Source: Candidatus Heimdallarchaeota archaeon
GTDB lineage: Archaea; Asgardarchaeota; Heimdallarchaeia; Heimdallarchaeales; Heimdallarchaeaceae
Direction: 5' to 3'
DNA: 64,000 nucleotides
Assembly (NCBI GenBank): GCA_018238545.1
Contig: JABCTC010000014.1
Coordinates: 1-64,000 of the forward strand
The position numbers and the translations under genes were made by a program. Below the pieces are notes generated by a model, which worked only from the letters and a program-made list of their open reading frames with translations, was not told the DNA's origin and searched no databases. Position 1 is the first letter of the stretch, and every line of letters begins with the position of its first letter. Below, piece by piece: positions 16,519 through 20,188 of this stretch.

Positions 16519-17562
16519 ATGAGTGATTCCCTTAAACCATTATTAATTCGATTGGTAGATTCTTTCTCCTATTATCTGATAAATGAAGCAAGAATTAGCA
16601 CTGGTAAAGAGGTTGTAAAGTCAAAAATCAATGATATTGCATATAGAAAAGCAAGTGGGAGATTTGGAGAAGTATATGTCATTGACGTGTTTTACAGTTC
16701 TGAGCATGGGGATCATAAGAGCAAATTAGCTATTAAATTCATTGATAATGTTGAAGATATAATTACAGAAATAAAAAATACTGCACTTCTAGAAAAGAAG
16801 TTTTCAACTCGGTCTATAGTTAGAATCCCACGTTATATTTATGTAAATTTAAAAAAACCTACTTATATTGCCTATGAAGGAATGACAGGAATCAACTATG
16901 AGGACGCACATTCAGTTTCTGATAAGAGCTTCTGGGCAGGCTATATTCTATCAATTATACATGAAGGTAAGCCAAAGCCGGTGATTAAAGATATCTATGA
17001 AGAATTATACAGACGATTGATTTTATCCGTATTTGGTGGTTCTGAAGAAGAACAAAGAATAATGGAAAAATCCAAAGTCTTGATTGAGATGGTTAAAGCT
17101 TCTCAAGGAGGTAGCGATTCTTTTGGTGATTATCATCAAAGCAACCTTATGATTCGCGTTGCTCCAGAGGGTGAGACTGTGAGTATAGCATTAATTGATC
17201 CAACTTTCTGGATGCAAGGATCTTTTGATAGATTTGAAGATATAGGGACATTCTTTGGAAGACAAGCATTTCTTGAATTTCGAGTTACAAAATTGCTAAC
17301 GTCTGCGATAAGTGATATTCAACAATTTATTCAAGGTTATTCTGTTCACTTGAAAGAAATAAATGGTGTTCCTTTGGAGGAAATGTATACAAAAGGGTAT
17401 CCCATAGATTTGTTTTTAGCAACATGGGCTATGATGGATGTATTAGATAAAACTAATAGCTTCAACATAGCTGCTGATCATCCAGACATTATCTTGTTAA
17501 AAGAACTAGCACATTATCTGTTAACAGAACAACCCATAGGAAATGAAGTAAACAATTTTTGA
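16519..17562 (+). CDS. Protein-kinase-like (PKL/APH-type) phosphotransferase
   Basis: SGRFGEVY Gly-loop, LAIKF Lys, helix-C Glu (ITEI), catalytic loop FGDYHQSN, metal-binding IDPTF, downstream EDIGTF. Confidence 0.75.
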   Translation: MSDSLKPLLIRLVDSFSYYLINEARISTGKEVVKSKINDIAYRKASGRFGEVYVIDVFYSSEHGDHKSKLAIKFIDNVEDIITEIKNTALLEKKFSTRSIVRIPRYIYVNLKKPTYIAYEGMTGINYEDAHSVSDKSFWAGYILSIIHEGKPKPVIKDIYEELYRRLILSVFGGSEEEQRIMEKSKVLIEMVKASQGGSDSFGDYHQSNLMIRVAPEGETVSIALIDPTFWMQGSFDRFEDIGTFFGRQAFLEFRVTKLLTSAISDIQQFIQGYSVHLKEINGVPLEEMYTKGYPIDLFLATWAMMDVLDKTNSFNIAADHPDIILLKELAHYLLTEQPIGNEVNNF

Positions 17563-17613
17563 TTCAATGAAGGGGAAAAAATTTATAGAACTAATACAAT
17601 ATAATTTTGAACA

Positions 17614-18456
17614 ATGACGGATTCTAATTCAGAAATAATGATATCAGCATATGCAATTGCTAAGATACTAGAGGTAGATGCTCTAGATACTTCAAAAGAA
17701 TCTGCTGGTGTTCTCTTAGGTTATTTTGATGAAGAAACACAGAAGCTAATAATAACTGATTTTGATACTGGAAAACAAAGACAAACATCAACCTTTGTCG
17801 TTTTAGATGATGAAGCTCTTGTTCAGATTGTTACAGATTTGCAGAAAAGAGATAAGAAAGAAACAATTGTTGGCTGGGCACATACGCATCCTTCATATGG
17901 TTGTTTCCTCTCTGGTACAGACAAGGGAACTCAAAGAATCTATCAAAATCTCTTCTCAAAAGCAGTAGCTTTAGTGATTGATCCTTCAAAATATTATCAG
18001 TCTCAAAAGAGTTCTGATTTAGAAATTCAGTTCTTTAGGTTAATAGATGATATAGATTACAAAGCAATACCTTATCATCTATATTTTGATGAACACACCA
18101 TACACATTTCTAACTTAGCCAAGGTTGACCTCAAATGGGAATTGCCAAAACTAAGAAAAGAAGAGGTTCTACTTCTACATAAGAAGTTGGAAACGATTGT
18201 GACTCCGTCTTTAATTGAACAAGATAAGAAATTACTTCATGGACTTGTTGATATACTCAGCGAATCTCATGAAATTCTTTCAGAAGTTGGCGAAGAGAAA
18301 GAAATTCTTGAAACTATTGATAAAAAACTACACTCAATAAACGAGAATGTTACCCGAATTTACAATGAGGAAACAAATAACATCTATTCAATAATGAATG
18401 TAGTAGCTGTAATTGTATTAACTATATCTTGGTTTTTAATTGCTTACTTTGTGTAA
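17614..18456 (+). CDS. JAMM/MPN+ metalloprotease (Rpn11/AMSH-like) with C-terminal coiled coil and TM anchor
   Basis: KESAGVLLG (catalytic E), VGWAHTHPSYGCFLSGTD (HxHx7Sx2D), AVALVIDP. Ends IMNVVAVIVLTISWFLIAYFV*. Confidence 0.85.
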   Translation: MTDSNSEIMISAYAIAKILEVDALDTSKESAGVLLGYFDEETQKLIITDFDTGKQRQTSTFVVLDDEALVQIVTDLQKRDKKETIVGWAHTHPSYGCFLSGTDKGTQRIYQNLFSKAVALVIDPSKYYQSQKSSDLEIQFFRLIDDIDYKAIPYHLYFDEHTIHISNLAKVDLKWELPKLRKEEVLLLHKKLETIVTPSLIEQDKKLLHGLVDILSESHEILSEVGEEKEILETIDKKLHSINENVTRIYNEETNNIYSIMNVVAVIVLTISWFLIAYFV

Positions 18457-18528: not shown

Positions 18529-19344
18529 ATGCCTAACATTGAAATTATTGCAATTCCATCCCACAAAATAATTGAGGAGACTGATGATTTGTTTGATATA
18601 TTAGTGGAATCAATGCAATCAAAATCAATAGTTTTTCAAGAAAATGATGTTTTAATTGTTGCTAGTAAAGTTGTTTCTGTAACTGAGGGAAGAGTGGTGA
18701 GTTTTGCTACAGTTTCTCCATCTCAGCTTGCAAAAAATCTTGCTGAACAAATGCATACTGCTGATGAATTCACTCAAATTATACTTAATGAGTGTGAAAA
18801 TAATTATATTGGTGTTGTCCCAGGAGCTTTAACTACCATTAACAAGTATGGCTTATTAGCAAATGCTGGTGCAGACCAATCCAATGTCAAAAAAAATGAA
18901 GTCATAGTTCTTCCTGTAAATAGCAAGAAATCGGCACGTAGTCTTAACTCAAAAATATTTGAGGCAACTCAACAAAAGGTTGGTGTAATAATTGCTGACT
19001 CCAGAACAATGCCAATGAGATTAGGCACTGTTGGCACTGCTTTGGCAACATATGGATTCAGATCAATAATTGATGAAAGAGGAAAGAGTGATCTATTTGG
19101 GCGACCAATGCACATTACTTCAAGGGCAATTGCAGACCAACTTGCTACAGCAGCTGAAATAGTAATGGGTGAAACAGATGAAAAAACACCTTTCGTAATT
19201 ATCCGAAATTACCCCCTGATTCTTATATCTGAAGAAGATGAAAAGGACATAAATGAGTTGATCCCAGCTGATCTATGCATGTTTCTCGGACCACTCATGT
19301 CGTGCATTAAAGAGAAAATAGAAGGAGAAAAGTATAATGATTAA
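18529..19344 (+). CDS. cofE: CofE-family gamma-glutamyl ligase (F420-0:L-glutamate ligase-like)
   Basis: VASKVVSVTEGR, ANAGADQSN, VIIADS, DLFGR, ADQLA, MGETDEKTP. Confidence 0.85.
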   Translation: MPNIEIIAIPSHKIIEETDDLFDILVESMQSKSIVFQENDVLIVASKVVSVTEGRVVSFATVSPSQLAKNLAEQMHTADEFTQIILNECENNYIGVVPGALTTINKYGLLANAGADQSNVKKNEVIVLPVNSKKSARSLNSKIFEATQQKVGVIIADSRTMPMRLGTVGTALATYGFRSIIDERGKSDLFGRPMHITSRAIADQLATAAEIVMGETDEKTPFVIIRNYPLILISEEDEKDINELIPADLCMFLGPLMSCIKEKIEGEKYND

Positions 19345-20188
19345 TGGATTTCTCGGAAATCTCCAAATTGGTGATAACTATCCAACTAGAATAATAGGGA
19401 TTGTAAATTTATCAGAAACTTCATTTTTTAAAGGTTCAATAGCTTCTTCTCAAAATGAATTGCAAATCTCGATTGAGAAAATGATTGAAGATGGAGCAAG
19501 TGGAATCGATATAGGCGCTCAATCTACACGACCAATTCAAATCTATGGCGGCAAAGGTCGACTCAATGAGAATCAAGAGCTAGAAATTATTAAAGAAGCA
19601 GTTAAAGCATCTCTAGATGTTCTGAGTAGTTACGATAAAATAGTGCTATCAGTTGATACAACAAGAATATCTGTAGCAGAACATTCTCTTAAAGCAGGTG
19701 TTAAGGTAATAAACGATATTTCAGGTTTTAAGAAAGAGAAAGAAATAGCGAAATGCATTGCTGAATTTGATGCTAGTGTTGTTTTGATGGCAGCTAAATC
19801 TGAACCTGGTGACGTGTATGAAATTAACGATATTTTACACGAGCTACGGACGAGTCTCTCCATTGGTGTTAGAGCTGGAATTGAAAAGCAAAATATGTTA
19901 GTGGATCCTGGAATTGGAAGCTGGGAAGCTCGAGATTTTAAGCATGATTATTCAATAATTAAGAATCTAAAAGAATTTCGGAAATTAGAATCGCCTATTT
20001 ATGTTGGTATAAGTAGAAAAACGTCTATAGGGAAAATTCTTAATGATGCTCCACCTGAAGAACGGTTGTTTGGATCGTTAGGAGCTACTATTATAGCTAT
20101 TGTAAATGGAGCTCATGTCATTAGAACTCATGATGTCAGACCAACATTCGAAGCTGTTAAAGTTGCTGAGACAATCTTAAATTACTAA
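19337..20188 (+). CDS. folP: Dihydropteroate synthase
   Basis: IGIVNLSETSF, IDIGAQSTRP, SVDT, INDISG, VDPGIG, GISRKT, IRTHDV. Confidence 0.93.
   Translation: MINGFLGNLQIGDNYPTRIIGIVNLSETSFFKGSIASSQNELQISIEKMIEDGASGIDIGAQSTRPIQIYGGKGRLNENQELEIIKEAVKASLDVLSSYDKIVLSVDTTRISVAEHSLKAGVKVINDISGFKKEKEIAKCIAEFDASVVLMAAKSEPGDVYEINDILHELRTSLSIGVRAGIEKQNMLVDPGIGSWEARDFKHDYSIIKNLKEFRKLESPIYVGISRKTSIGKILNDAPPEERLFGSLGATIIAIVNGAHVIRTHDVRPTFEAVKVAETILNY

Follow-up and report, generated by a model that had tools for sequence, protein, structure and literature searches.

Eukaryotes have no closer known relatives than the Asgard archaea, in which a ubiquitin system is fused to a gene cluster for the endosomal sorting complexes required for transport (ESCRT). 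Which enzyme removes ubiquitin in this pathway, and at which site of the cell, is a question left unaddressed in the published survey of these systems, in which MPN-domain genes were only counted (Hatano et al., PMC9192718). It is raised by a locus of Candidatus Heimdallarchaeota archaeon (assembly GCA_018238545.1, contig JABCTC010000014.1, positions 1 to 64,000; this whole stretch of 64,000 nucleotides is called the window hereafter), in which the open reading frame at 17614-18456 of the forward strand (stop codon 18454-18456) encodes a 280-residue protein combining an Rpn11-like JAMM protease domain with a C-terminal membrane anchor. This tail-anchored (TA) design recurs widely among Asgard archaea and probably represents the ubiquitin-removing enzyme so far missing from their ubiquitin–ESCRT system. 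As for the window protein itself, we lean towards a cytosol-facing, membrane-tethered ubiquitin hydrolase or isopeptidase serving the ESCRT-linked ubiquitin system, its activity, substrate and localisation being predicted. If the anchored JAMM is indeed this enzyme, ubiquitin removal would be hard-wired to the membrane, from which one could argue that the substrates of the Asgard ubiquitin–ESCRT system are associated with membranes. The literature searched, which was thin on subscription journals and is hence no proof of absence, contained no account of a JAMM anchored to the membrane in these archaea. JAMM proteins likewise go unmentioned in a survey of prokaryotic SNARE-like proteins in which the candidates were filtered for tail anchors.

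Regarding the catalytic half, the MPN/JAMM domain covers residues 1-168 (17614-18117) and holds the catalytic glutamate E29 (codon 17698-17700) upstream of the zinc-binding and catalytic motif HxHx7Sx2D (H90, H92, S100 and D103; 17881-17922), residues 90-103 being HTHPSYGCFLSGTD. The Pfam JAB model PF01398 matches residues 5-113 (E=1.4e-12, 47.9 bits for a cut-off of 22.5), while the prokaryotic JAB model PF14464 gives a weaker match (E=1.1e-5). In a sequence search of the PDB, the best match was the Rpn11-like protein of Caldiarchaeum subterraneum (CsRpn11, 6FJV; E=7.5e-25 over residues 4-145, with ~36% identity over 142 residues), followed by yeast and human Rpn11 (~1e-16, best 6.5e-17), CSN5 (~1e-11) and AMSH-type enzymes (E=5e-8 to 1e-4). 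An AlphaFold2 (AF2) model built from 22 orthologs reaches a mean predicted local distance difference test score (pLDDT) of 75, with the MPN domain mostly at 75-92, and a Foldseek search with this model recovered CsRpn11 and Rpn11 at template-modelling (TM) scores of 0.77-0.81 (0.81 for 6fjv, with a root-mean-square deviation of 3.3), as well as CSN5. The Ins-1 region and the residues of the catalytic groove also align closely with those of the ubiquitin-binding CsRpn11. Since E29, H90, H92, S100 and D103 are invariant in the 22 aligned orthologs, down to 49% identity (range 49-91%), the protein is not a pseudo-enzyme, and an Rpn8-like identity is ruled out on the same ground. By sequence it is thus a JAMM domain of the Rpn11/CsRpn11 type with an intact catalytic motif, for which isopeptidase activity is predicted. 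A preliminary description of this DNA, made from its letters and translated reading frames, had claimed both a complete JAMM motif and a closeness to the Rpn11 type, and these claims are borne out.

Where such an enzyme would act is suggested by its C-terminal half. The hydropathy profiles of the 22 aligned orthologs show one strong peak only, in the last 19-24 residues: Kyte-Doolittle means over the final 19 residues are 2.3-3.0 in 22/22 orthologs (at most 1.66 for the next-best window of each protein), the summed Hessa insertion free energy of the segment is negative in all 22, and 0-3 residues follow it. In the window protein, this transmembrane anchor is a 24-residue apolar stretch at residues 257-280 (18382-18453), in which Y258, N262 and W273 are invariant among the orthologs. 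It is preceded by a polar hinge (residues 251-256) and by a juxtamembrane amphipathic helix of three heptads (residues 231-250; 18304-18363), delimited by per-column analysis of the ortholog alignment, whose a/d positions 232, 235, 239, 242, 246 and 249 (3-4-3-4-3 spacing) are hydrophobic in 95-100% of the sequences, with polar residues between them. AF2 draws residues 227-279 as a single unbroken helix and places two further stalk helices at residues 182-194 and 202-217 (18157-18264; pLDDT 60-70). No signal peptide is present, the N-terminus being formed by the MPN domain, and the protein has the classical topology of a tail-anchored protein whose protease domain is, as deduced from its sequence, cytosolic; indeed, an intact Rpn11-like JAMM joined to a conserved tail anchor implies that the catalytic part is tethered to a membrane on its cytosolic side. 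The membrane-tethered JAMM of the preliminary description, with its helical stalk, heptad-like segment and C-terminal transmembrane helix, is supported, and the conservation of this helix among orthologs, which it had proposed to verify, extends to 22/22.

The same description had called this architecture SNARE-like. A SNARE motif comprises ~60 residues in 16 layers. The topological resemblance stands, but homology of the C-terminal half to SNAREs was ruled out, as no SNARE or synaptobrevin family of Pfam matches the protein at E<=0.01 and it has three heptads rather than ~8. The stalk, of ~90 residues, is by its sequence specific to this family: a protein atlas search with residues 150-280 returned no look-alike, and an exhaustive profile search matched the stalk region solely in JAMM proteins or JAMM fragments, so that an independent stalk family was also rejected. 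As for membrane insertion, the genome encodes an ArsA/Get3-family ATPase (E=4.8e-80) and an EMC3/Ylp1-type insertase (E=9e-16); because the ArsA model matches all 14 of 14 control genomes too, these genes are only permissive for tail-anchor insertion.

The anchored design extends far beyond the window, a breadth that had escaped the preliminary description, as had the pairing of the gene with a kinase-like gene (described below). In what follows, f numbers are family codes for Asgard lineages and G numbers are genomes, G000 being the genome of the window. Fifty orthologs of ~280 residues are found in metagenome-assembled genomes of Heimdallarchaeota/Heimdallarchaeaceae under the database label "Mov34/MPN/PAD-1 family", and the gene occurs in 26 species-level genomes, including two closed Heimdallarchaeum chromosomes. 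In a 300-genome sample of the phylum, it is present in 25 of the 27 same-family genomes (E<=1e-118), the remaining two having either a fragment at a contig end or, in a genome 81% complete, no gene; sister families carry weaker, full-length relatives. Of 43 distinct JAMM genes from about 25 Asgard families, 35 have a lone transmembrane segment at the C-terminus, in a long class of 272-312 residues (the order and family f6) and a short class of 218-251 residues (many other lineages), and soluble paralogs only are seen in f14 and f5. Between Asgard lineages the anchors are unrelated in sequence yet retain their terminal position, length and hydrophobicity, a pattern typical of lipid-embedded anchors.

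A quick maximum-likelihood search on the MPN core placed the window protein in an order-level archaeal clade (support value 98), tail-anchored throughout except for two fragments, and put every Asgard TA form in a large archaeal assemblage, apart from the clade of type-B ubiquitin-operon JAMMs (95) that holds the soluble JAMM of the same genome. The eukaryotic enzymes Rpn11 and CSN5 cluster by themselves (99), and a grouping of the window protein with eukaryotic Rpn11 was not recovered in this quick tree; the phylogeny that the preliminary description had suggested yields an archaeal clade separate from the eukaryotic enzymes. Two other groups of JAMM proteins were encountered. Genomes of f14 contain up to nine soluble paralogs of 300-540 residues with diverse C-terminal domains, some of them in tandem arrays of two or three (loci L130, L134, L140 [G206:C17] and L138 [G182:C39]). 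In addition, the exhaustive profile search brought up JAMM proteins of 430-760 residues (P0115, P0116, P0126, P0152, P0159, P0170 and P0191) with a transmembrane segment at ~170-210 followed by large, extracellular-looking domains, a different membrane-anchored architecture.

Which substrate, then, would this protease serve? The window genome (92% complete) encodes exactly two JAMM genes detected by PF01398 or PF14464, both with the JAMM motif, alongside two systems of ubiquitin-like protein (Ubl) and E1. The second JAMM is a soluble protein of 242 residues, 38% identical to the window protein over the core, and is encoded in a type-B operon (contig C114, L005:6384-13047) composed of E2, the soluble JAB gene, two uncharacterised genes (368 and 192 residues), an opposite-strand reading frame (244 residues), Ubl and E1. 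The type-B Ubl, of 119 residues, begins with a long acidic extension and terminates in AG instead of GG, and a gelsolin-repeat gene adjoins the operon. On contig C21, a type-A pair formed by a 78-residue Ubl ending in GG-Y and its neighbouring E1 runs straight into a full ESCRT cluster (L141:4278-11678), comprising a 487-residue fusion of UEV/E2-like, Vps23-core and Vps28 parts, Vps22/36, Vps25, Vps4 and two ESCRT-III genes. This is the type of cluster described by Hatano et al. (PMC9192718), and no deubiquitinase gene is present in it. If the sequence-based assignment is true, a single archaeal genome would hold two separate ubiquitin systems, each with its own JAMM.

The phyletic distribution points to the type-A system as the partner of the anchored form. 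Family tallies of this JAMM mirror those of E2 (PF00179), families devoid of E2 being also devoid of the JAMM (JAMM vs E2: 1/76 vs 0/76 in f11, 0/5 in f21, 0/7 vs 1/7 in f24), and a type-A E1 is present in every family bearing a TA-JAMM. Conversely, the E2-positive families with no type-A E1 (f14, 0/68; f27, 0/7) showed soluble JAMMs only in the material examined, which for f14 comprised two operon loci and complete searches of four genomes, and for f27 one best-hit locus. The soluble JAMMs of f14, f27 and f18 are encoded inside ubiquitin operons; the type-A operon of f8, f13, f17, f19 and f25 consists of a small RING-like gene, Ubl, E2 and E1, with no JAMM. Several type-A Ubls bear residues after the di-glycine (SVKY, DP, RADTRRGGIL, and Y in the window genome). 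In three genomes of 96-98% completeness (G001, G013 and G007), two of them Odin-like with 1.4 Mb at 97-98% completeness and the third from f13, no JAMM other than the TA protein was detected (PF01398 or PF14464, E<=0.01), and we infer that maturation of the ubiquitin precursor, a housekeeping task that the preliminary description had not considered, also falls to it there. The TA form is likewise kept in G011 and G029, which have separate small Prok-JAB proteins.

As for ESCRT, the type-A operon is contiguous with ESCRT-I, ESCRT-II, Vps4 and ESCRT-III genes in the window genome, in f8 and in f19, and in f25 Vps4 and ESCRT-III lie ~6 kb from it. A single sampled case was found of a JAMM inside a ubiquitin–ESCRT cluster: in f18 (locus L083 of G012), a soluble JAMM of 149 residues, from the same tree assemblage as the TA forms, is flanked by two ESCRT-I genes on one side and by the RING-Ubl-E2-E1 genes on the other, Vps4, Vps25 and Vps22/36 lying upstream. 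Taken together, the genomic context offers indirect support for a link of the TA-JAMM to ubiquitin and ESCRT via the type-A operon.

Several observations weigh against this assignment. TA-JAMM genes were never seen next to ubiquitin or ESCRT genes in the sampled loci (0/35 have ubiquitin, E1 or E2 genes in the fetched flanks of up to ~6 kb), and direct operon evidence is hence lacking. In f5 and f20, a type-A E1 is present and only soluble JAMMs were seen, so that the anchor is not obligatory for a type-A system, and since related genomes are not independent samples, the phyletic patterns are suggestive rather than statistical proof. The ubiquitin specificity itself is deduced from the ~36% identity to CsRpn11 and from co-occurrence among these related genomes, while maturation of the ubiquitin precursor could be carried out by other protease families. 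The MPN tree, a quick search on ~170 columns with weak deep branches, does not establish that the TA forms arose only once, and the stalk of the window protein is modelled at a pLDDT of only 47-70.

Several known systems invite comparison. CsRpn11 (6FJU, 6FJV and 6FNN), described as a "primordial soluble Rpn11", cleaves ubiquitin precursors and ubiquitin conjugates (Fuchs et al., 2018, PMC6043591). Besides being the top sequence match in the PDB, it is among the top fold matches (6FJU and 6FJV) and shares with the window protein the MPN+ core, the Ins-1 region and a stand-alone existence outside a proteasome lid; unlike it, CsRpn11 is soluble, has ~200 residues and is encoded inside a Ub-E1-E2-RING operon, whereas the window protein has an added stalk of ~90 residues and a C-terminal transmembrane segment and is never found in a ubiquitin operon. 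Rpn11/PSMD14 and CSN5 have a near-identical JAMM motif, the same fold and helices after the MPN domain, but they depend on pairing with a catalytically inactive MPN subunit (Rpn8 or CSN6) and on a PCI lid, and have no membrane anchor. The archaeal desampylases HvJAMM1 and PfJAMM1 likewise work alone as JAMM isopeptidases, with beta-grasp modifiers as substrates; of the Prok-JAB type, small (~130-160 residues) and soluble, they act on SAMPs, whereas the window protein co-occurs with E2-type ubiquitylation.

The preliminary description had further proposed an integral-membrane analogue of AMSH. With respect to function, AMSH/STAMBP and AMSH-LP resemble the proposed role, as they are JAMM deubiquitinases working at membranes where ESCRT sorts cargo, and the context of the type-A ubiquitin operon agrees with this part of the proposal. 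Unlike the window protein, AMSH is soluble and recruited through its MIT domain and STAM-binding motifs; it also possesses a zinc-bearing Ins-2 for K63 specificity. The window protein, of which only residues 23-127 are spanned by AMSH alignments, shows no evident Cys/His-rich insertion in its sequence and no Pfam match to an MIT domain (its MPN domain begins at residue 5); it is far more similar to CsRpn11 and Rpn11 than to AMSH and AMSH-LP (E=5e-8 to 2e-5) and is never encoded beside ESCRT genes. The relation to AMSH is thus one of analogy, not orthology. Single-pass-anchored, cytosol-facing deubiquitinases do exist in eukaryotes, namely USP19 (tail-anchored, endoplasmic reticulum) and USP30 (mitochondrial outer membrane), which are cysteine proteases of the USP fold, unrelated to JAMM. 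A tail-anchored JAMM deubiquitinase has, to our knowledge, yet to be described from eukaryotes, and if our assignment is true, a member of the JAMM fold would join the short list of tail-anchored deubiquitinases.

We infer the ubiquitin specificity of the window protein, its pairing with the type-A system, its involvement in precursor maturation and deconjugation at the membrane and the role of a kinase encoded directly upstream, and propose the following mechanism. The protein would be inserted post-translationally, with the Get3/ArsA-type ATPase and the EMC3/Ylp1-type insertase as candidates, and its stalk would set the distance between the membrane and the JAMM domain at a few nanometres, possibly in a dimer or oligomer formed through the heptad helix and the conserved Asn and Trp of the anchor. 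The JAMM domain may then bind the beta-grasp body and the C-terminal tail of the type-A ubiquitin (78 residues, GG-Y) and cleave after the di-glycine, by which the precursor would be matured and ubiquitin would be taken off membrane-proximal conjugates and recycled where ESCRT acts. The soluble second JAMM would serve the type-B operon that encodes it, and in Heimdallarchaeales the APH-fold kinase may act in the same pathway or regulate it. Within this scheme, the deubiquitination of membrane cargo is purely conjectural. The stronger proposal, that the Asgard ubiquitin–ESCRT pathway has in the TA-JAMM its dedicated deubiquitinase, resident in the membrane and both maturing the ESCRT-linked ubiquitin and stripping membrane cargo, is put forward tentatively as one possibility that we would not bet on. 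Were it true, ubiquitin recycling at membranes would predate eukaryotes, which would have swapped a permanently anchored enzyme for the recruited soluble AMSH and Doa4/USP8, and the kinase of Heimdallarchaeales would contribute a lipid-linked step or a switch based on phosphorylation. The protease domain and the 78-residue ubiquitin precursor form a small, readily expressed pair for a direct biochemical test.

Among the alternatives, the one that survives best is a membrane quality control resembling endoplasmic-reticulum-associated degradation, in which the anchored JAMM, beside an unfoldase (Cdc48 or a PAN-proteasome), would strip ubiquitin from extracted membrane proteins instead of taking part in ESCRT sorting. 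The greater proximity of the window protein to Rpn11 and CsRpn11 than to AMSH, in sequence and fold, agrees with such a role, as do the lack of an MIT or other ESCRT-binding domain and the separation from ESCRT genes. Yet no Rpn8-like inactive MPN partner was found, the two MPN genes detected in this 92%-complete genome being both JAMM-bearing, there is no unfoldase or proteasome gene among the conserved neighbours, and the ubiquitin system that the TA-JAMM tracks is precisely the one fused to the ESCRT cluster. We therefore regard this explanation as unlikely, albeit the most serious contender.

A second alternative concerns the modifier: the substrate could be the type-B Ubl of C114 or a SAMP/Urm1/MoaD-like protein, in the manner of HvJAMM1 acting on SAMPs. 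JAMM domains are promiscuous across beta-grasp modifiers, the NCBIfam haloarchaeal desampylase model gives a weak match to the window protein (E=0.0046, 16.8 bits for a cut-off of 130), and a direct operon link to type-A ubiquitin is missing. Against this, the type-B operon encodes its own JAMM, which belongs to a separate clade, and the type-B-only families examined show no TA-JAMM. G011 and G029 retain the TA form despite their separate small Prok-JAB proteins, and Asgard families without E2, in which sulfur-carrier proteins of the beta-grasp type would still be expected, do not have the TA form. Another modifier as the substrate appears, hence, improbable, and type-A ubiquitin remains our preferred partner.

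The most constant neighbour of the gene is the kinase mentioned above, a protein of 347 residues encoded at 16519-17562 on the same strand. It stands directly upstream of the JAMM gene in 25/25 Heimdall loci with upstream sequence, even where the downstream genes cofE and folP are inverted or absent, and lies within 3 kb of it in 11/11 sister-family genomes. Sequence searches with the kinase were empty in the PDB (E<=10) and in Pfam and NCBIfam (E<=0.01), whereas its AF2 model (pLDDT 90) gave PsiK, Mph, APH(2''), MTRK and ChoK as best Foldseek matches. The G-loop, Lys73, Glu84, the catalytic loop D204-x4-N209 and an IDP replacing DFG are kept, with G47, G50, K73, E84, D204, N209 and D227 invariant; the gene product is thus predicted, from its model, to be an active kinase of the APH/choline-kinase/MTR-kinase fold. 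Its association with the JAMM is confined to two families: f3 and f4 carry both genes on different contigs, f6 has a TA-JAMM with no kinase and f5 a kinase with no TA-JAMM. In many Heimdall genomes from several families, matches to a paralog of this kinase run across one in-frame stop (TAA, TAG or TGA; G000:C125:4165-5217, for example), which may reflect two adjacent reading frames, a match past a true stop or a recurrent interruption.

This neighbour brings in a third alternative, in which the JAMM would be an amidase for substrates other than ubiquitin that, together with the kinase, processes a membrane-located small molecule or lipid head-group, such as a cofactor, a lipid-linked intermediate or a Ubl-lipid conjugate. 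The conservation of the kinase-JAMM adjacency across the order, the small-molecule type of the kinase fold (PsiK, APH, ChoK, MTRK) and the presence of cofE and folP downstream of the JAMM gene in most same-family genomes all fit this idea. It is nevertheless a rather remote prospect, given that the kinase link is limited to two families, f6 and most other lineages having the TA-JAMM and no kinase and f5 the reverse, that cofE and folP are inverted or absent in several loci, and that the Ins-1 and catalytic groove residues align so closely with those of CsRpn11. Finally, that the hydrophobic C-terminus is a buried helix docking the protease into a soluble complex, as Rpn11 and CSN5 assemble through their C-terminal helices (those of Rpn11 in the lid bundle) and as the invariant Y258, N262 and W273 could suggest for a specific helix-helix contact, is very improbable in view of 19-24 consecutive apolar residues with Kyte-Doolittle means of 2.3-3.0 and a negative predicted insertion energy, of anchors whose character but not sequence is kept across Asgard lineages, and of the fact that PCI complexes or lid partners are not known in archaea (PMC6043591).

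The spacer of 51 nucleotides between the kinase and JAMM genes contains a purine tract resembling a B recognition element (BRE) followed by a TATA box (17572-17587, forward strand; TTTATA at 17582-17587), 26 nucleotides before the JAMM ATG. By eye, a purine tract followed by TTTATA or TTTAAA recurs ~25-35 nucleotides upstream of the start in most of the 25 orthologous loci, with varying flanks. Judging from the sequence, this BRE/TATA element is probably the JAMM gene's own promoter and would give rise to a leaderless or near-leaderless mRNA. Since the gene apparently has its own promoter, co-transcription with the kinase cannot be claimed, and strict co-transcription was accordingly set aside; a sigma-70 and terminator scan of the locus was uninformative for an archaeon.

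Other neighbours show less constancy. A seven-gene "membrane signalling locus" comprising longin/roadblock paralogs, a Zn-ribbon protein, an acidic protein, the kinase and the JAMM was considered and holds within the family only; as the kinase alone accompanies the JAMM into the sister family, the other neighbours are not treated as part of the feature. A functional link to cofE and folP was also rejected, the pair being inverted in four loci and absent in two. In the window (18529-20188), the gene of a cofE-family gamma-glutamyl ligase and the beginning of folP (dihydropteroate synthase) share 8 nucleotides; the pair is inverted as a unit in the four related loci and is absent downstream of the JAMM gene in Heimdallarchaeum.

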